Below are positions 25,357-44,139 of a stretch of DNA of 52,079 nucleotides, piece after piece. This DNA is from a virus, in the IMG/VR virus record IMGVR_UViG_3300035192_000069; one strand, 5' to 3'. The position numbers and the translations under genes are program-made. Within the stretch, counting starts at the first letter, position 1. Each line of letters starts with the position of its first letter. Under the pieces are notes generated by a model. The model saw only the letters and a list, made by a program, of their open reading frames with translations, ran no database searches and had not been told where the DNA came from.

Positions 25357-26070
25357 CTAACAAAGCATCGACGCTGGAATCCAAGGTTTACGCCCGTCGA
25401 TGGTAAACGTCGACACGGATGCATATTCACTGTGCCGGATGATTGATTCTTGCTGTCCGTATGTCTTGATCCGATAGGGCAACTCCGGCCAGTCTGGAAT
25501 GACCCAGTTGCCTCGCAATGTGGATTCAAAACATCTCAATGGAATTTGATGGTCCGTCTGAAAATATTGAATCGGCTGCATTGCCAGAATGGCGAGCTCG
25601 GCAGCGCGCCGAGAAAGCGCGTAGGCGCCCAATGTCCTCGGTGCCCTTACCTGCCCGTCCGGATACAATGAGAGGCGACAGCCGGGATGTGAAGAGCCGA
25701 TGAGGTAGTACCAGTCGCAGTCGTCGGGCACCTCGATTTCGGACAGGTCTCCAACGGGTTCGGTGTCGTCCTCGATGATGATGGTCCACTGTTCGTCGGT
25801 GGCGAGGAAGTGCTCCATCGCCCGCAGATGAGAGCAATTGCATCCGTACGTCGTCGGGAACATTTTGAAGTGCCTGGATGACATGTCCATATCCTCGGGG
25901 ATATCTCCCCAGCACGGTCGTCCCTCCTCGTCAAACGTCCCGTCAGACCACTGCATGCCGTCTACTGCAGGGATCCGTATCAGGTCATGAAATGCCGATG
26001 ACACGTGTTCCCATCGGTCCGTAGACCGGTCGAGGTTTATGCATCGAATTTTCATGTCTTGTAAGATCAT
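25357..26070 (-). CDS. Glycosyltransferase family 25-like (LPS-type glycosyltransferase)
   Basis: The N-terminus is MKIRCINLDRSTDRWEHV...IPAVDG and an EDD acidic motif is present. It abuts the fibre gene stop. Confidence 0.6.
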   Translation of the reverse strand: MILQDMKIRCINLDRSTDRWEHVSSAFHDLIRIPAVDGMQWSDGTFDEEGRPCWGDIPEDMDMSSRHFKMFPTTYGCNCSHLRAMEHFLATDEQWTIIIEDDTEPVGDLSEIEVPDDCDWYYLIGSSHPGCRLSLYPDGQVRAPRTLGAYALSRRAAELAILAMQPIQYFQTDHQIPLRCFESTLRGNWVIPDWPELPYRIKTYGQQESIIRHSEYASVSTFTIDGRKPWIPASMLC

Positions 26071-35825: not shown

Positions 35826-36206
35826 TCACAGTTTCTTGATCATGCCACTTCCACCGGCGCTCAGCGTGACTGAGGCCGTCGCTGGGTTTGCCTCGATTGT
35901 TCCCGTAATGTTCCCGTTGCCAATGTAGTTGATACCGCCCGCATAGGTGATCACAACCTCGCCGCCTCCCTTCTTTTGGAAGTCAACTAGGTACTCATGA
36001 TCTCCATTCTCGATGTCGAACGTAAGCTTTACCGAAGAGATTGACCACGGGACAGGTGTCCGAAGTTCTCGGTGAGTAAAATTGCCGTTCATCTCGTGGG
36101 CAATCTCGATCCCGCCCATGACCACGGTAGGGTCCGAATCGACAGTTACCGGCAGCTCACGGCCGCCAAAGGAAACACTTTCAAGGGGTCCACCTGTTGC
36201 CGTCAT
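35826..36206 (-). CDS. Tail tube protein
   Basis: 126 aa directly after the sheath gene (ATGA overlap). Confidence 0.7.
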   Translation of the reverse strand: MTATGGPLESVSFGGRELPVTVDSDPTVVMGGIEIAHEMNGNFTHRELRTPVPWSISSVKLTFDIENGDHEYLVDFQKKGGGEVVITYAGGINYIGNGNITGTIEANPATASVTLSAGGSGMIKKL

Positions 36207-37693
36207 GATTGACCTCCGTAATTAAATCCAGACGCGAAATCGATTGAAATCACGTTGGCGTTGCCGGCCAGTTTGGCCACCATCTTGACATCGAGCCGTT
36301 TTGGATTTGTAAGGCCGATATCGGCGCTGCTGTTTTCTTTTGCGAAATCCGGATCGGCTATGATGGCGTCCAACGCCAGTACGTCGATGATTCGATAGAG
36401 AGCTGCCACCGCGTGCTTCGGTTTTCTTGCCTCGGGATTGGTTGATACCTGGTTGTTCGGAATCAACGGTTTCCCATCCCACTTGGAACCGTTGAACTCC
36501 AGGTCCAGCTCGTTGATGACCGTGCTCCGCTTCGCGAAGTCGACCACGTAGCGGAATCCCGGGGGCTCCTCCCCGGTCGGATGGTAGCAGGTCACGACAT
36601 CGCCGATCTGCACCACCCCGTCTTTCACCTGGACCGTGGAGCAGCCCATCTTGACCGCGGCATCGCGCTGTGCACTCGTCCACTGGTCGCCATCGGCCGC
36701 TGGGGTAAGCCAGGTGCACGGCAATGATCCATAGTCGTGAGCCGGGTTCTGGTTGTCCATCTTGGCGATCTCTCGCACCTGATCCGCAGCGATGACAAAC
36801 GGCAGGTCATGAGATCCTGAGTTTGTCAAAATAGCGTTGGTACGGTCCGTTTTTCTGGCGTCGGTGACGGCCGTGACCGCGCTCCATGATGCGTTGCAGC
36901 CGGTGAACACGCACAGTGGCTTGTGCACCTCGGGGTCGCGGCGGCCCTCGCCGAATAGCGCGAACTCGTCCAACTCGTCGCTGTCGGTGTAGTCGAGGGA
37001 GTTGATGGCGTGCGTCTCCCACGTATTGCCGACTTGCGCGAGCGCTGCCGAGATGTCCGGAGTTCCAGCGCCATTCGCTGGCTGAACAATGGTGAAAGAG
37101 GTCTCGGTGTCAATTGGAGACACCACCTCGACATAAACATTGTTCCCGCTGGCGCCCTCCCATTTGACCTCCAGGTTGCAAACTCCGGTTCCATCTGTTG
37201 CGGCAGCCGGCATACCAAGGATGGCGTTGATTGCAGCCACGATCTTTGTAGCTATCGTGGCATCGGTATCCGTGGACACGACAGAGAACTTGTCAGACAG
37301 AATGTTCCCAATCTTTACTTGATGCTCCTGTGTTTTCGTGAGCGTACCAGGAACAGGCGTGATTGACCCTGTGGCCTGAACCCCGCCCGTGGCAGGCTGA
37401 GCTAGAGGATATAGGGTTACCTCTATAGAACCAACTCCACCGCCATACTTAGGGAATAGCGATTGTACCATCAGATGGGCGGGCGACCCCCATCCCTCGA
37501 CCTCGCCGACTTCTTCGGCGGAGAATACCCTCCGCTTTGTCGTCGAATAAGTATTGGCCTCGTTCCCCTGGGCAAAAACGGGTATTCTTGTGGGTCGGTA
37601 TCGCGTGCCGGCCGCGCCGAGTACCTGATGGTACGATCTGATCGCGACCCCTCGGGCGACTCGGTCTGGAGGAAATGCATAGGTCATTGGCAT
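36203..37693 (-). CDS. Contractile tail sheath protein
   Basis: 496 aa, upstream of the tube gene, with a sheath-family pattern. Confidence 0.8.
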   Translation of the reverse strand: MPMTYAFPPDRVARGVAIRSYHQVLGAAGTRYRPTRIPVFAQGNEANTYSTTKRRVFSAEEVGEVEGWGSPAHLMVQSLFPKYGGGVGSIEVTLYPLAQPATGGVQATGSITPVPGTLTKTQEHQVKIGNILSDKFSVVSTDTDATIATKIVAAINAILGMPAAATDGTGVCNLEVKWEGASGNNVYVEVVSPIDTETSFTIVQPANGAGTPDISAALAQVGNTWETHAINSLDYTDSDELDEFALFGEGRRDPEVHKPLCVFTGCNASWSAVTAVTDARKTDRTNAILTNSGSHDLPFVIAADQVREIAKMDNQNPAHDYGSLPCTWLTPAADGDQWTSAQRDAAVKMGCSTVQVKDGVVQIGDVVTCYHPTGEEPPGFRYVVDFAKRSTVINELDLEFNGSKWDGKPLIPNNQVSTNPEARKPKHAVAALYRIIDVLALDAIIADPDFAKENSSADIGLTNPKRLDVKMVAKLAGNANVISIDFASGFNYGGQS

Positions 37694-37695
37694 TC

Positions 37696-39765
37696 TTACA
37701 CCTCGTATCTGAGCTCTGCGCGGACAAGGCCGTCAGGCTCGTGGTAGAGTTTGATATTGATGAGCTCCAGGGTCTCGGGCTCCTCGAGCTCCACAGTCTC
37801 ATTGTGGCGCACTTCCAATACAACCCGAAGCCCCATGACGTTCTGTGCCGCTGGATTACCCGACTGGGGTTGGAAAGCGGTTCGATTTGAAACCCAACGG
37901 TCCCATACTGGGTCACCGGCATTTGTGAATCCGAGTCGCCTGTACTTGGGGTGCATCAGGAACTTGCGTACAAATCGCCCGATCTTGTGGGCGAGCATTG
38001 CCGCGGATTCATCCCCGGGGGCGTGGCCATCGACTGTCTGTCTTGATGGCGCCCAAGCGTAGCAGTCAATATTGAATTGACTGGTAGTCGTCTGCCTCGT
38101 CGTGTTATTGGATGTCGATTTGTCGAATACATCCGAGTCGTACCAGACGTTGACGATTGGCGTCTTGTCCGCGCCGTCTCGGTAGAGCTCCCACGGATCG
38201 ATGCGCTCGGCGTAGACCAGGAATTTCCAGTCATTCGGATCGTATCCAGCAGCGGCCGCAAGGGCTTGCTGGGACGCCGTTTCGAGCGCCAAGATCTCGG
38301 CAATCCTGTCTCTGACAATCTCGAATCCATCCATGTCTGTCACCAATGGGATTATCCACTCTCGCGTAAATGGATACTCGGAAGCGCTCATTACCGATGC
38401 AGGCGACCATATCGCGGCACTCGCTTTGTTCTCTTGGGTCGCGGTGGCGTTCATCATCGACGCCGGCGAGTAAATGACTGCGGAAGCGTAGTTGAGGATT
38501 GCGTTGATGGCCACCGCGTGCGCGACGGACGCAGGGGAGCTGAAATCGGCCGTGGCGATGTTTTGCTGGGTCGCCGATGCGGATGCTTGCGAGGCTGGCG
38601 ACGAGATGTTCGCCGATGCAATGTTGACTGCGGCATTGGTCGCCGTAGCGCTGGCCTCGGATGCCGGCGAGAAAAAAGATGCTGACGCATCGTTTGCCTG
38701 AGTAGCGTTGGCGCTATATTCTGGTGCTGGCGAATAGACATCGCCTGATGCGATGTTAGCGCTCGACGCCGTTGCCGCTACCTTAGATGCCGGCGACAGG
38801 AAATCTGCTGACGCCTCATTTGCTTGGGTGGCGCCTGCACTGTGCTCCGATGCTGGTGAATAGGCTTCACCAGATGCGCTATTGACGCTCGTCGTCGAAG
38901 CCTCCGCCTCCGAGGCCGGAGAGAACACCGACACCGATGCTTGATTCGACTGTGTGCCGGTAGACGCCGATATCGACGCGGGGGATTGGATATTGCCCGT
39001 GCATGCATTTGTGGACGCGGACAGCGTGACCGCAAATCCGACAGAGTTTCTCTGGCCGCTATCTGTCGTTACAAAAGCATAGACGGTTCCTGCCGATAGA
39101 CCGCCCTGGACGACGGTGCCGGTGATGGTGTCGTCTACCCATGTGGATACCGTCTGCTCTACTTTGGTCGTGGCGGAATCGTAGTTGATGTTGTCGCAGA
39201 GCTCGAACTTCCCGCCACCTTGTGCCGTTTCGAAGTCCGATCCGGTACCTGATAGCGATCCTCCAGGTGTGATGGGGTTGCCCGAGTTGACACCGCTGAT
39301 CGATGGGGGAATATACCCCCATGCCTGCATTCCAACAGTATGCCCATAGGTGCTCGGAAGATTAATCGAAGGATCAGACGCCGCCCACGTAGAGTATGTC
39401 GCAGCGACATACCTCAGAGTGCCGCCAGCGCTGGAAGACAATGTACCGTTGGTATCGCAGTTGCCACCAAGCCAAACCTCGTCGTTCTGCGTGACGGCGA
39501 AATCGTCTATTGGAACTTCATTCCATGATGAACCTGCACATGCATACCCATCGTCATTGGATGCCAGAAGGTCACCGGGGTGATCGGATCCGTTGTCGAG
39601 ATGGGCGGCGACTTTGAGATTTCCGGATGAGATTGAATAATTTCGAATGTACTTTACAACGCCTGTGTACAGAACCGTGTACTTGTTCGCCCCATAGTAA
39701 TTGGGTAGCCTCGATGCGGTCGGCACCGAAGACCACTCGTTTCCTATGAGGCGTTGAATCGGCAT
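37696..39765 (-). CDS. Neck / tail-completion protein fused to jelly-roll, Ig-like (IPT/TIG-type) and SPAS-repeat fibre modules
   Basis: Start MPIQRL overlaps the upstream stop (TAATG). Residues 261-462 form about 9.5 repeats of 21 aa. The C-terminal 227 aa is a globular domain sitting just before the sheath gene. Confidence 0.6.
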   Translation of the reverse strand: MPIQRLIGNEWSSVPTASRLPNYYGANKYTVLYTGVVKYIRNYSISSGNLKVAAHLDNGSDHPGDLLASNDDGYACAGSSWNEVPIDDFAVTQNDEVWLGGNCDTNGTLSSSAGGTLRYVAATYSTWAASDPSINLPSTYGHTVGMQAWGYIPPSISGVNSGNPITPGGSLSGTGSDFETAQGGGKFELCDNINYDSATTKVEQTVSTWVDDTITGTVVQGGLSAGTVYAFVTTDSGQRNSVGFAVTLSASTNACTGNIQSPASISASTGTQSNQASVSVFSPASEAEASTTSVNSASGEAYSPASEHSAGATQANEASADFLSPASKVAATASSANIASGDVYSPAPEYSANATQANDASASFFSPASEASATATNAAVNIASANISSPASQASASATQQNIATADFSSPASVAHAVAINAILNYASAVIYSPASMMNATATQENKASAAIWSPASVMSASEYPFTREWIIPLVTDMDGFEIVRDRIAEILALETASQQALAAAAGYDPNDWKFLVYAERIDPWELYRDGADKTPIVNVWYDSDVFDKSTSNNTTRQTTTSQFNIDCYAWAPSRQTVDGHAPGDESAAMLAHKIGRFVRKFLMHPKYRRLGFTNAGDPVWDRWVSNRTAFQPQSGNPAAQNVMGLRVVLEVRHNETVELEEPETLELINIKLYHEPDGLVRAELRYEV
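38380..38985. repeat. Tandem coding repeat with a 63-bp unit and a 126-bp super-unit, about 9.5 copies
   Basis: SPAS starts fall at residues 261, 282, 303, 324, 345, 366, 389, 410, 433 and 454. The DNA blocks gatgccggcgagaaaaaagatgctgacgc and gatgccggcgacaggaaatctgctgacgc lie 126 bp apart. Confidence 0.85.
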
Positions 39766-40100
39766 TACGCAAGCATCGCTTTCAGTTGATTGATTTGGGT
39801 GACATTGTTCTGGCACCCAGAGCAGAGCTCTTCGTATGTCGTGTATCCAGCAGCCGCGCACGTCTCGCACCGATTGAAGTTGCGATTGGACAAATCCAGA
39901 ATGCGAGCAATCTCCTCAGCGAAGCGGGAGTCACTTGGATTTACCCAGATACCGCCCGTCTCTTCGCGCGAGCTCTCGTTGTTCTCGCTACAGAGCTGGA
40001 TACAGATCTTCCCGCGCCACTTCTCCCGGACAAACCATGGGACACTGGCCAGCTCGAATGTGTGTCCGACATCGAGCTTCTGATAGATGGACTTCATCAC
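39765..40100 (-). CDS. Hypothetical virion-module protein (Cys4 near the C-terminus)
   Basis: 111 aa; CETC...CSGC. Confidence 0.45.
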   Translation of the reverse strand: MMKSIYQKLDVGHTFELASVPWFVREKWRGKICIQLCSENNESSREETGGIWVNPSDSRFAEEIARILDLSNRNFNRCETCAAAGYTTYEELCSGCQNNVTQINQLKAMLA

Positions 40101-40106
40101 ACCTCC

Positions 40107-40532
40107 TTACGGTGTCGGATCGTAGGTTTCGCGCTGGGTGACCGTTGGGGCGGCGCTGAACGTAACCGGAATGTCCGTGGCGAGGGTCAATGAGGTCAAT
40201 TCGAATTCCTCACCAGAGCCCGTTGCTCCAACGGATCCTGTCTCTCGCACGTTGCCGTCCTTGTCGCATATGGCGACCTTCGCGACAGTGCCTGCGGCCG
40301 ATGGCAACTGCTGATAGCCAACCCATGACGCCTCGCCATCCGGTGGATTGAACGTGCTCACGGCATCAACAGCATCGGCGACGGCCTTGGTCGTATCGAG
40401 ATTGATGACCAATAGATCTGCGTCACCTGATGTCCGGTATCTCAGGGTTGGGTAGGTGCCCGATCCTGCATCAAAAAGCGCATTGCCGGCATTTCTCATG
40501 GCGTTGCGCATTGGCATGCTTAATGTGCTCAT
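40107..40532 (-). CDS. Conserved phage structural-module protein of unknown function
   Basis: 141 aa with the pattern TLRYRTSGDADLLVINL...SVGATGSGEEFELTS. Confidence 0.5.
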   Translation of the reverse strand: MSTLSMPMRNAMRNAGNALFDAGSGTYPTLRYRTSGDADLLVINLDTTKAVADAVDAVSTFNPPDGEASWVGYQQLPSAAGTVAKVAICDKDGNVRETGSVGATGSGEEFELTSLTLATDIPVTFSAAPTVTQRETYDPTP

Positions 40533-42343: not shown

Positions 42344-43030
42344 CTACCAGCTCTCTGTCCCGCCGAGGTCTCTTACTGCCTCGAACGTGATACCGCTGTT
42401 TTTGATGAGTTTGTCGAAGACGAGCGTATCAATTGCCGTGCTGTCATCGAGTTTCGAAAGTTTTGTCTTGTTCAAGTGACCACCTTTGATCACCCGGACA
42501 CTGAGATCGCCGCTTGCCGCGAACGTCAGCGAATGCGGCAGAACCGCTGTTGGCTCGTTCAGTCCGTTTGAGCCCGAGTCACTGTATGGTCCCATCTTCT
42601 TGGTGCTCGTGTTCCTGGCCAAAAGAGTTCCCTTTGGCCAAGTGGCGCTTTGGCCCGTTCCAGCAACGGCCGCATCCCATGTGAGCGTTGCGGTACTGGA
42701 GGCATCGATTGCGATGGAACTGCCAAGTCCCGTGGAGTCGGAGGTGATCTTCACATGTCCGGTGTCGACCTCTACAGAGCATCCGTCGAGCTGCGCATTG
42801 GCCTGTGCGGCAATAAGCGCGGCCGTGTTTGTCGTTCCAGCGAACGTGACCGTCTGGTTGGCGCCACCATCCACCGAGACAACAAGGGTCTTGGTGTCCT
42901 GATCCACTGTCTCGTTCGTTGCGGACGTGATACTCCCCGCTGTTCCTGTTAGGTCTGCTGTAACGAGCTCTGCTTCGTACTCGCATTTCCCCAGGATGAG
43001 ATCGTCTCTTGTTTCGTGAGTCGTAATCAT
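42344..43030 (-). CDS. Head decoration protein (gpD-like C-terminal part with an extra N-terminal/inserted domain)
   Basis: ATG overlaps the protease stop (ATGA). The C-terminus is WPKGTLLARNTSTKKMGPY...VIKGGHLNKTKL. Confidence 0.55.
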   Translation of the reverse strand: MITTHETRDDLILGKCEYEAELVTADLTGTAGSITSATNETVDQDTKTLVVSVDGGANQTVTFAGTTNTAALIAAQANAQLDGCSVEVDTGHVKITSDSTGLGSSIAIDASSTATLTWDAAVAGTGQSATWPKGTLLARNTSTKKMGPYSDSGSNGLNEPTAVLPHSLTFAASGDLSVRVIKGGHLNKTKLSKLDDSTAIDTLVFDKLIKNSGITFEAVRDLGGTESW

Positions 43031-44139
43031 TCCACCACCCATCCCTTGTGTTTGGCCAAAAAGGCTTGTCGGTCCTTCTCGTCCTGGCTGGCTGTCAATG
43101 CAGCGGCATCGCCAGCGGTGTTGATCTCGGGCGGGTTGTCGTCCTGGCGAGCCTGGATCATGTTGCGCTTCATAGCGGCTGACATGTGCTGCGCCTTCAC
43201 CATTTCGGTGATGCCATCTCCGTCCTTGATCGCCTTGTGAGCCGCCTCGACATCGCCGCTTCCTTCTGCGAGGATGAGGTGAGCACAGGCACGCTCGTGC
43301 TCCTCTTTGGAGCCCGCCTCTTTGCCCGCGTTGAAAACAGCGTCATACGTGGCCCGGTGCTCTTCCTTCAGTGTTTTCGGGTCCATCTTGTCTCCTATCT
43401 TTGCCGCCTTGGATTCGGCGGGCTGGTTGTTCATGATTCCGTCAATCATCTTCTTCTGGAGGGCGGTCCTGGCGGTCATTACGGCCCCTTGGCCGTAGTC
43501 TCGCTTGACTTTGTCGACAGTGGTCTTGCGGCCAGCTGCAATCATCTCTGCATACACCTCATAAAAGTCGTCGAGCTCCTCCTCGACAACCTTCTTCCCC
43601 TCTTCGGTGGTCACGTCCGGCCGCTTGTTCCTACTGTCCGAGTTGGTAATGTCGATGATTCTGTCGGACACGTACATCGCTGTTGCAATGCCGACACTTC
43701 CAACTGCCGAGACTTCGCTCTCGGCGATGATTTCATTGGTTTGTGACGCCAGCATGTAGGCCGCGGATGCGAGCGTGTCGCCGGCAATCGTCCTCGTCGG
43801 GACGCTTGCCGAAGCAATCGCCTTCATCGCGTCATACAGACCATCGACATACCCTCCAGGACTGTCGATTTCAAAATTAATTTGCTTGGCGCCCTTGTAT
43901 TGGGCCTCGGCTACGTCGGAAATGATCTCCGAGTAGACCGCGTAATCTTCTTCCCAATAGTCGAGCCAAGAGTTGCGCTTCGGATAGAGCGGCCCTTTTA
44001 TCTTAATGGTCGCAACCCCGTTCTTGACCTGCACAGGATCGCGATCTTTCGATTTTGCCTCCGGGAGGGGCTGCCCGACGACACTGGCGAACAGGTATGC
44101 AAGTCTCTCGACTTCGTCTTGGAGCATCAGTAGCTTCAT
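43027..44139 (-). CDS. S49 (SppA/ClpP-fold) prohead protease with a scaffold-like C-terminal half (lambda C/Nu3 type)
   Basis: The peptidase motifs are FEIDSPGGYVDG and TLASAAYMLASQ. The C-terminal ~150 aa are helical and charged. Confidence 0.8.
   Translation of the reverse strand: MKLLMLQDEVERLAYLFASVVGQPLPEAKSKDRDPVQVKNGVATIKIKGPLYPKRNSWLDYWEEDYAVYSEIISDVAEAQYKGAKQINFEIDSPGGYVDGLYDAMKAIASASVPTRTIAGDTLASAAYMLASQTNEIIAESEVSAVGSVGIATAMYVSDRIIDITNSDSRNKRPDVTTEEGKKVVEEELDDFYEVYAEMIAAGRKTTVDKVKRDYGQGAVMTARTALQKKMIDGIMNNQPAESKAAKIGDKMDPKTLKEEHRATYDAVFNAGKEAGSKEEHERACAHLILAEGSGDVEAAHKAIKDGDGITEMVKAQHMSAAMKRNMIQARQDDNPPEINTAGDAAALTASQDEKDRQAFLAKHKGWVVE

Follow-up and report, generated by a model that had tools for sequence, protein, structure and literature searches.

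A candidate phage tail terminator encoded in one reading frame with an N-terminal knob, an immunoglobulin-like domain and a repeat stalk

We analysed a gene that lies just upstream of the tail sheath gene in a 52,079-nucleotide stretch of viral DNA (IMG/VR virus record IMGVR_UViG_3300035192_000069; the whole stretch is called the window below) and that encodes a protein of 689 amino acids (aa). On the minus strand the genes follow each other in the order Hc1 head closure, 141-aa gene, 110-aa open reading frame (ORF), 689-aa gene, sheath and tube; the major capsid protein is also encoded upstream and a tail assembly chaperone downstream, and the gene order around the 689-aa gene is the same in relatives. 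The features of the locus are as follows, with confidence of AlphaFold2 models given as the predicted local distance difference test (pLDDT).

37696..39765, minus strand: whole gene for the 689-aa predicted fibre–terminator fusion, a single ORF with the stop codon counted in
39316..39765, minus strand: D1, the 'knob', aa 1–150, modelled as an all-beta sandwich (AlphaFold2 pLDDT 93–98)
39010..39315, minus strand: immunoglobulin (Ig)-like domain of the IPT/E-set type, aa 151–252 (AlphaFold2 pLDDT 95–98, Foldseek)
38380..38985, minus strand: repeat stalk, aa 261–462, 9.5 units of 21 or 23 aa, roughly SPAS-x7-Q-x-N-x6
37696..38379, minus strand: predicted tail terminator domain, aa 463–689 and the stop codon (phrog_4671, AlphaFold2 and Foldseek)
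36203..37693, minus strand: tail sheath gene, directly downstream (phrog_165 tail sheath, E = 2.3e-75)
39765..40097, minus strand: 110-aa ORF (counted from its ATG), zinc-ribbon-like with two CxxC motifs, whose stop codon overlaps the ATG of the fibre gene
40107..40532, minus strand: 141-aa partner gene (phrog_3758 'virion structural protein', E = 1e-4)

The C-terminal domain links the gene to a known class of tail proteins. Residues 472–683 cover phrog_4671, a family of 'unknown function', end to end (E = 7.5e-45), and this is the sole sequence family that was reached; no curated terminator family was found by sequence in Pfam or the PDB, and a profile of the domain gave nothing below E = 0.28 against PDB sequences. 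In tblastn searches of the 50,697 deposited phage records that our phage-genome searches covered, only aa ~471–688 were matched, by genes of ~220 aa located just upstream of the sheath gene in phages of Aeromonas, Shewanella, Vibrio, Pseudoalteromonas, Acinetobacter and Oceanospirillum, one of which carries the annotation 'tail terminator protein'. A set of 5.8 billion proteins yielded 196 clusters of homologues, and among the 120 listed nearly all were free-standing and 219–227 aa long. Genes at this position are thus normally small, as a first-pass annotation made from the sequence of the window had stated.

The N-terminal and C-terminal halves of the protein were modelled separately with AlphaFold2. 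The model of the C-terminal domain, built from 79 sequences, had a pLDDT of 91.2, ended in two C-terminal strands (E215-222 and E228-235) and gave 21 Foldseek matches to the PDB (E <= 1e-3), with few exceptions to entries for necks, terminators or tail caps. Foldseek probability was 1.0 for terminators such as lambda gpU, T5 p142 and that of Mu, and 0.97–0.98 for T4 gp15; the template modelling (TM) score against lambda gpU was 0.6–0.69 when normalised to gpU. Further matches (probability 0.97–1.0) were the neck proteins of Pa193 and E217 and the collars of pyocin R2 and diffocin, together with terminators from Chi, Milano, 7-7-1 and further phages. Known tail terminators (lambda gpU, T5 p142, Mu gp37, T4 gp15 and the E217/Pa193 neck protein) share with the domain both the fold and the place upstream of the sheath or tube genes, and between the head-closure and sheath genes of the window there was no second terminator candidate. 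By its modelled fold and its gene position, the C-terminal 227 aa is a tail terminator. The first-pass annotation had seen in it a globular protein of the neck class, and the structural comparison narrows this to tail terminators and does not lead to a non-structural family.

The known terminators among the Foldseek matches are chains of 123–284 aa, whereas the protein encoded here has 689 aa, with an N-terminal addition of ~460 aa. The ORF listing gives a single frame, 37696..39870 on the minus strand, that opens at a GTG; the ATG at 39765 yields the 689-aa product. This start is supported because the ATG shares the sequence TAATG with the stop codon of the upstream 110-aa ORF, an overlap that implies translational coupling to that ORF. 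The 689-aa gene has no Shine–Dalgarno (SD) site of its own (score −1.6), and the 110-aa ORF has the strongest one in the module (AAGGAGG, −15.3 kcal/mol). Inside the 689-aa ORF we found no start with SD support, in agreement with the earlier reading: the region before Met459 scores −2.7 kcal/mol, compared with about −10 or stronger at gene starts here that have a clear SD, and Met459 is replaced by Val in two relatives (P0003 and P0004) and absent from two more (P0006 and P0009).

An uninterrupted long ORF is present at the same position in eight close relatives, whose assemblies (JGI, ENA, Logan and IMG/VR) are independent; none of them has a stop codon or frameshift that would separate two genes. 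The repeat number varies among the related proteins and loci as follows.

689 aa, 9.5 units: P0001 (98% identical to the window protein) and L014
668 aa, 8.5 units: L012 and L013
647 and 645 aa, 7.5 units: P0002 and P0003, respectively
603 aa, 5.5 units: P0004

The length differences among close relatives are whole repeat units throughout, with the frame kept, so that the copy-number variation proposed as a check on the repeats is indeed present in related contigs; sequence identity among these relatives varies module by module. Because the ratio of nonsynonymous to synonymous substitution rates (dN/dS) measured against five relatives is low in the repeats (0.11–0.30) as well as in the globular modules (0.03–0.19), the whole frame is under purifying selection, all four modules included. 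In more distant phages, with terminator domains 40–49% identical, repeats and terminator stand behind different N-terminal heads. Proteins P0006–P0008 have a different head in genomes with full synteny from portal to baseplate, and P0009 likewise joins repeats and terminator to a swapped head. At locus L083 (2-1744) a terminator homologue of 40% identity is preceded in frame by at least 366 aa, cut by the contig end and made up of acidic 23-aa repeats (DSIASEESVSNVDIEVGxVxI). Long ORFs at this position were found at L004–L006, L009–L014 and L083; such extended forms are rare: of the 80 best IMG/VR loci, four had one, namely three close relatives and L083. The recurrence of the same ORF in the eight close relatives and in distant phages, with an unconserved Met at the junction, upholds the earlier proposal that the 689 aa form one chain, and low dN/dS, swapped heads and module-wise identity indicate that the appendage is functional.

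The stalk follows exactly the pattern first described for it, namely repeats at residues 261–462 with a period of 21 aa, twice extended to 23. SPAS or SPAP motifs start at aa 261, 282, 303, 324, 345, 366, 389, 410, 433 and 454, a spacing of 21 aa five times and then of 23, 21, 23 and 21, which gives nine full units followed by half a unit that continues into the C-terminal domain. Residue identity at a lag of 21 is 0.394, compared with 0.132 ± 0.022 in shuffled sequences (n = 2000; z = 11.7). The units are mutually ~50% identical in protein and ~60% in DNA sequence, and the region consists of 26% Ala, 21% Ser and 7% Thr. The alternation of odd and even units in a 126-bp super-repeat, which the first-pass annotation had also proposed, was found in part. 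A repeat search recovered one tandem pair of two-unit copies of 126 nt, 71% identical to each other:

38641..38766 and 38767..38892, minus strand: tandem pair of 126-nt copies

The 42-aa deletions of P0002 and P0003 fall inside this pair (38641-38892). Against a regular super-repeat, the identity between units rises little from lag 1 to lag 2 (from 0.50 to 0.57 in protein and from 0.60 to 0.65 in DNA), Tandem Repeats Finder reported nothing in the stalk region, and the length differences between relatives comprise single units and pairs of units. An obligatory two-unit (42-aa) repeat is ruled out by the 668-aa variants, from which exactly one unit is missing.

The repeat family had not been recognised on first inspection, and neither a Pfam family nor a PDB sequence matched it; phmmer searches of PDB sequences with two repeat regions gave matches at chance level only. 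A profile of the unit found no match in the 5.8-billion-protein set and missed even its source proteins, probably because of swamping by low-complexity sequence. By comparing proteins we could map the distribution of the SPAS repeats in 13 of them, and variants of the unit, among them a further 21-aa form in P0169, have in common a Pro-containing turn, a central Q-x-N and alternating hydrophobic residues. The repeats of P0012 aligned to designed 'Pizza' beta-propellers at a non-significant E of 0.13, and a closed beta-propeller is hard to reconcile with copy numbers from 5.5 to ~20 and with insertions or deletions of single units. In its predicted short strand–turn–strand units with a Pro/Gly turn, and in that copy number sets the length of the shaft, the stalk resembles the triple beta-spiral of adenovirus and reovirus (units of 15–16 aa); it differs from this shaft in the length of its unit, 21–23 aa, in the SPAS ... 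Q-x-N pattern and in the low AlphaFold2 confidence of the monomer.

At the other end of the protein, AlphaFold2 predicted two all-beta domains for aa 1–250 (pLDDT 93–98). The second was annotated at first pass as an Ig domain similar to IPT/TIG, and its fold bears this out: Foldseek matched it to a type II secretion Ig domain in the PDB (TM 0.80) and to entries for NF-kB/NFAT/TonEBP, plexin and CGTase, whose Ig domains are known to be of the IPT/E-set type, and no Pfam TIG or related Ig family was found for it at E <= 0.1. The first, D1, had been described as a lectin-like jelly-roll; the beta sandwich stands, and the lectin label does not follow from the matches, which are generic likenesses to accessory domains of esterases and to knobs of phage fibres. 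Its best PDB matches are SGNH carbohydrate or polymer esterases at TM below 0.3, presumably through their accessory beta-sandwich domains, and a chain from the asymmetric unit of the cyanophage A4 capsid was matched as well (TM 0.58). Matches in BFVD include the ends of collagen-repeat phage fibres, minor tail proteins of actinophages and, at rank 48 (E = 2e-3), a Lactococcus phage neck passage structure protein. This generic beta-sandwich likeness does not demonstrate that the modelled D1 is a lectin.

The two domains recur widely. A HMMER search of 1.84 billion representative proteins with aa 1–260 returned 514 clusters at E <= 1e-3, of which 143 reached E <= 1e-10; in these homologues D1 and the Ig domain occur joined or apart, at any position, in proteins of 96–2866 aa, among them free-standing proteins of ~260–280 aa, and the Ig domain is often present alone or in tandem copies. 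He_PIG, DUF4082, DUF285, LRR, SLH and GDSL esterase domains co-occur with them. Weak DUF4082 matches were seen in six of 53 homologues and a weak PA-IIL match in one. It is well supported that aa 1–250 are an adhesin or fibre-knob module.

Knob, Ig domain and repeat stalk are also joined to C-termini other than the terminator (P0005, P0010, P0011, P0012 and P0013), in P0012 as a protein of 1015 aa with ~20 units and in P0013 with a GDSL esterase. The head of P0005 (L003 1436-3175) is 82% identical to that of the window protein over aa 1–258 and is followed by 12 repeats and, with no terminator domain, by a short tail of 10-aa period (SKIGTRIEAV / SKIETRIEEV ...). Locus L003 shares the 141-aa gene (77%) and the 110-aa ORF (93%) with the window and diverges after the repeats; the repeat array appears to contain a recombination breakpoint, and the genes that follow P0005 had no PHROG matches. 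A different anchor is seen in P0181 (L095 6001-7455), a protein of 484 aa in which knob, Ig domain and four or five 21-aa repeats (GxGPSxxAxIxLxQxNDxxxV) precede a domain similar to lambda gpFII (Phage_attach, PF05354, E = 1.1e-7). The P0181 gene directly follows those for the capsid and stands two genes upstream of the sheath gene; the phage is a myophage that has the same lambda-like head genes. A 207-aa gene that follows it was considered as a member of the terminator family and showed no detectable relation.

A homologue of the 141-aa gene precedes every fibre gene examined, including those in the differing neighbourhoods of L003, L008 and L095 (51–77% identity); across L003, L004, L007–L011 and L095 the homologues are 39–99% identical and lie one or two genes upstream of the fibre gene. 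The 141-aa protein matched only phrog_3758 and, weakly, one PDB chain, and tblastn with it against GenBank phages found nothing. The PDB chain is a protein, likewise of 141 aa, in the tail-fibre model of Agrobacterium phage 7-7-1 (9RKV), with the weak similarity expressed by an hmmsearch E of 0.087 and, for the same pair, an hhalign probability of 14.6% and pairwise E of 0.0018. From its size and the chain count this chain is probably the 'garland' protein, an assignment that the paper on this phage leaves unstated. The garland protein of phage 7-7-1 binds tail fibres (PMC12796354). The two proteins thus agree in length and in having a gene that adjoins a fibre gene, whereas their sequence similarity is weak and offers a lead, not a family assignment. 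Judged from gene comparisons, knob, stalk and 141-aa partner form a mobile cassette that has been recombined onto different C-terminal anchors. In a phage with tail genes similar to phiJL001 gp84, L008 6498-9981 carries, in this order and directly after the tail-tip genes, the 141-aa gene, a gene for a GDSL esterase of 354 aa that looks secreted, the 552-aa fibre gene and a 106-aa gene. This placement suggests that the same fibre is used there at the tail end.

The arrangement at the locus allows us to propose that the protein is the phage's only terminator and that every subunit bears an N-terminal adhesin-like appendage, so that six arms stand at the neck, a reading to which we give a probability of roughly 0.6. 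The C-terminal domains would assemble into a hexameric ring that closes off tube and sheath and joins tail and head; outward from the ring would follow the stalk of 9.5 repeats, in which each 21-aa unit is probably a beta hairpin, the Ig-like domain and, distally, the beta-sandwich knob. The six arms would radiate from the head–tail junction, singly or associated with one another, on stalks estimated very roughly at 5–12 nm, depending on their beta architecture, and would most likely bind polymers of host or environmental surfaces weakly and reversibly, raising the chance of adsorption. Our main reason for inferring an outward orientation is that such fusions have survived repeatedly and independently. 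A role in host interaction fits the exchange of heads and the differing stalk lengths seen among near-identical phages. In Mu gp37 the C-terminal arm pairs with the last sheath ring (PMC11915804), and the C-terminal arm of the phage 7-7-1 terminator does likewise (PMC12796354); the appendage would sit at the N-terminus because the C-terminal arm of the terminator must stay free for this pairing. Extra domains that have been reported on terminators serve sheath termination (PMC11784142), and our search of the literature turned up no description of a terminator or gpFII-like protein that has a fibre of knob, Ig domain and repeat stalk built in.

Several points weigh against this proposal. The N-terminus of the T5 terminator takes part in subunit contacts, and an N-terminal tag kept that protein monomeric (PMC11784142); an N-terminal fusion is not obviously harmless because of these ring contacts. 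AlphaFold2 placed two beta strands in each stalk unit at a pLDDT of only 26–53, a low confidence that makes any fold or oligomeric state of the stalk tentative. Pfam returned no family for the whole 689-aa protein at E <= 0.1, binding of sugars or other ligands by D1 is putative, and the uncleaved 689-aa product is a putative virion component.

Beyond the window, the data would be compatible with a class of neck-anchored arms in uncultured aquatic myophages, in which a 141-aa partner, an N-terminal knob and Ig domain and a new 21-aa beta-hairpin shaft (P...Q-x-N) have been fused to the N-terminus of whichever hexameric ring protein was available, the terminator here and a gpFII-like protein at L095; the subunit would double as anchor, and gain or loss of units would tune the length. 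We advance this generalisation tentatively, at somewhat less than even odds. Ig-like decorations and separate neck fibres are already well known. The decoration of structural phage proteins with Ig-like domains, as in T4 Hoc, was reportedly treated by Fraser et al. in 2006 and is associated with an 'adherence to mucus' model. The proposed arms would be similar to Hoc in their outward N-terminal Ig or beta-sandwich domains, the C-terminal part that binds the virion and a probable weak adhesion to polymers; Hoc, however, is a separate and dispensable capsid protein, whereas here the display module is fused through a repeat stalk to an essential neck ring protein. T4 fibritin whiskers, the lactococcal neck passage structure and the collars of 7-7-1, Milano and E217 share the site at the head–tail junction and a presumed accessory role, but they are separate products that dock on neck proteins, whereas arm and ring subunit are here one polypeptide with a stalk that is not a coiled coil and in which no known shaft repeat was recognised. 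Compared with classical tail fibres the polarity is opposite, the head being N-terminal and the anchor C-terminal.

Other explanations of the same gene were weighed against the proposal of adhesin-like arms. The appendage might instead be structural: with the 141-aa partner it would build a collar or brace at the neck, or it would contact the capsid, and so stabilise the head–tail junction as collar proteins do in 7-7-1, Milano and E217. Such a role would suit the invariable linkage of a 'virion structural protein' gene to the fibre genes, the separate collar proteins that surround the necks of several myophages and the likeness of D1 to the cyanophage A4 capsid-unit chain. We think it unlikely: exchange of heads and changes in stalk length are typical of host-interaction modules and not of load-bearing parts, the knob–Ig module also occurs in GDSL esterase, LRR, He_PIG and collagen-like fibre contexts, and in ~200 related phages a terminator of 220 aa suffices with no appendage. 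Two products might also arise from the one ORF, with the full-length chain a minor species and most of the ring built from a terminator of ~227 aa started internally at Met459 or nearby; arms would then be present at some ring positions only. Phage morphogenesis has known cases of nested in-frame products, such as lambda C/Nu3; the ATG at aa 459 lies in frame ~10 residues before the point at which free-standing homologues begin, and the T5 data suggest that N-terminal additions can interfere with ring formation. The missing SD and the poor conservation of Met459 make this improbable, however, and the next possible starts (aa 474–478) would cut off conserved N-terminal residues.

A further view takes the Ser/Thr/Ala-rich repeats mainly as an O-glycosylation substrate of a glycosyltransferase of the phage, so that a glycan-coated neck would shield the virion or alter its surface. 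Mycobacteriophages are known to encode transferases that glycosylate virion proteins, the composition of the stalk would suit such a substrate, and a candidate enzyme lies in the tail-fibre region of the window:

25357-26070, minus strand: glycosyltransferase-like gene (Pfam GT25 at 24.2 bits, cut-off 24, over the N-terminal half; PHROG glucosyltransferase, 1.4e-12)

The first-pass annotation had named this a GT25 gene and its product a possible modifier of the repeats; the PHROG match supports a glucosyltransferase, and the Pfam match to GT25 is marginal, with half of the profile covered. Conserved in the two closest relatives from IMG/VR, the gene is flanked by a 582-aa gene without a family match and a 487-aa gene whose N-terminus matches a tail fibre family. 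A search for co-occurrence of transferase and repeat protein recovered the closest relatives only and is uninformative for linkage. Moreover, the repeat variants in P0005, L083, P0169 and P0181 are acidic or hydrophobic and poor in Ser and Thr, and the conserved Q-x-N with alternating hydrophobic positions points to a folded unit. That the transferase O-glycosylates the repeats is speculation, and glycosylation as the main purpose of the stalk has in our view a slim chance of being correct. As for an artefact, in which a fibre gene and a separate terminator gene were merged by faulty sequencing or assembly, free-standing fibres do exist, as the very similar P0005 illustrates by ending without a terminator. 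The independent assemblies with uninterrupted ORFs, the whole-unit differences in length that keep the frame and the purifying selection that holds across the junction regions nevertheless effectively refute it.

Tail terminators are usually regarded as small, invariant plumbing parts. If the proposal of adhesin-like arms is right, essential neck ring proteins can serve as platforms for swappable, length-tunable host-interaction modules, the known parts of phage fibres gain a shaft repeat and a partner protein, both new, and the terminator would offer a scaffold, in six copies per virion, for the display of foreign domains at a defined site. The cassette is currently visible in metagenomes only: tblastn with the knob–Ig module against the 50,697 deposited phage genomes gave one marginal match, and megablast with 15 kb around the gene gave no match among GenBank phages.

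Two neighbouring genes vary in relatives. The 110-aa ORF, which had no Pfam and no PHROG matches, is 93–99% identical in L003, L009 and L010, and at L004 an unrelated 117-aa ORF replaces it. The head decoration protein of the window (42344-43042, minus strand) has 232 aa and shows a weak match to lambda gpD-like proteins (HDPD) only at aa 132–196; at the same position L010 encodes a plain HDPD protein of 128 aa, and the decoration protein of the window thus seems to bear ~100 extra N-terminal residues.

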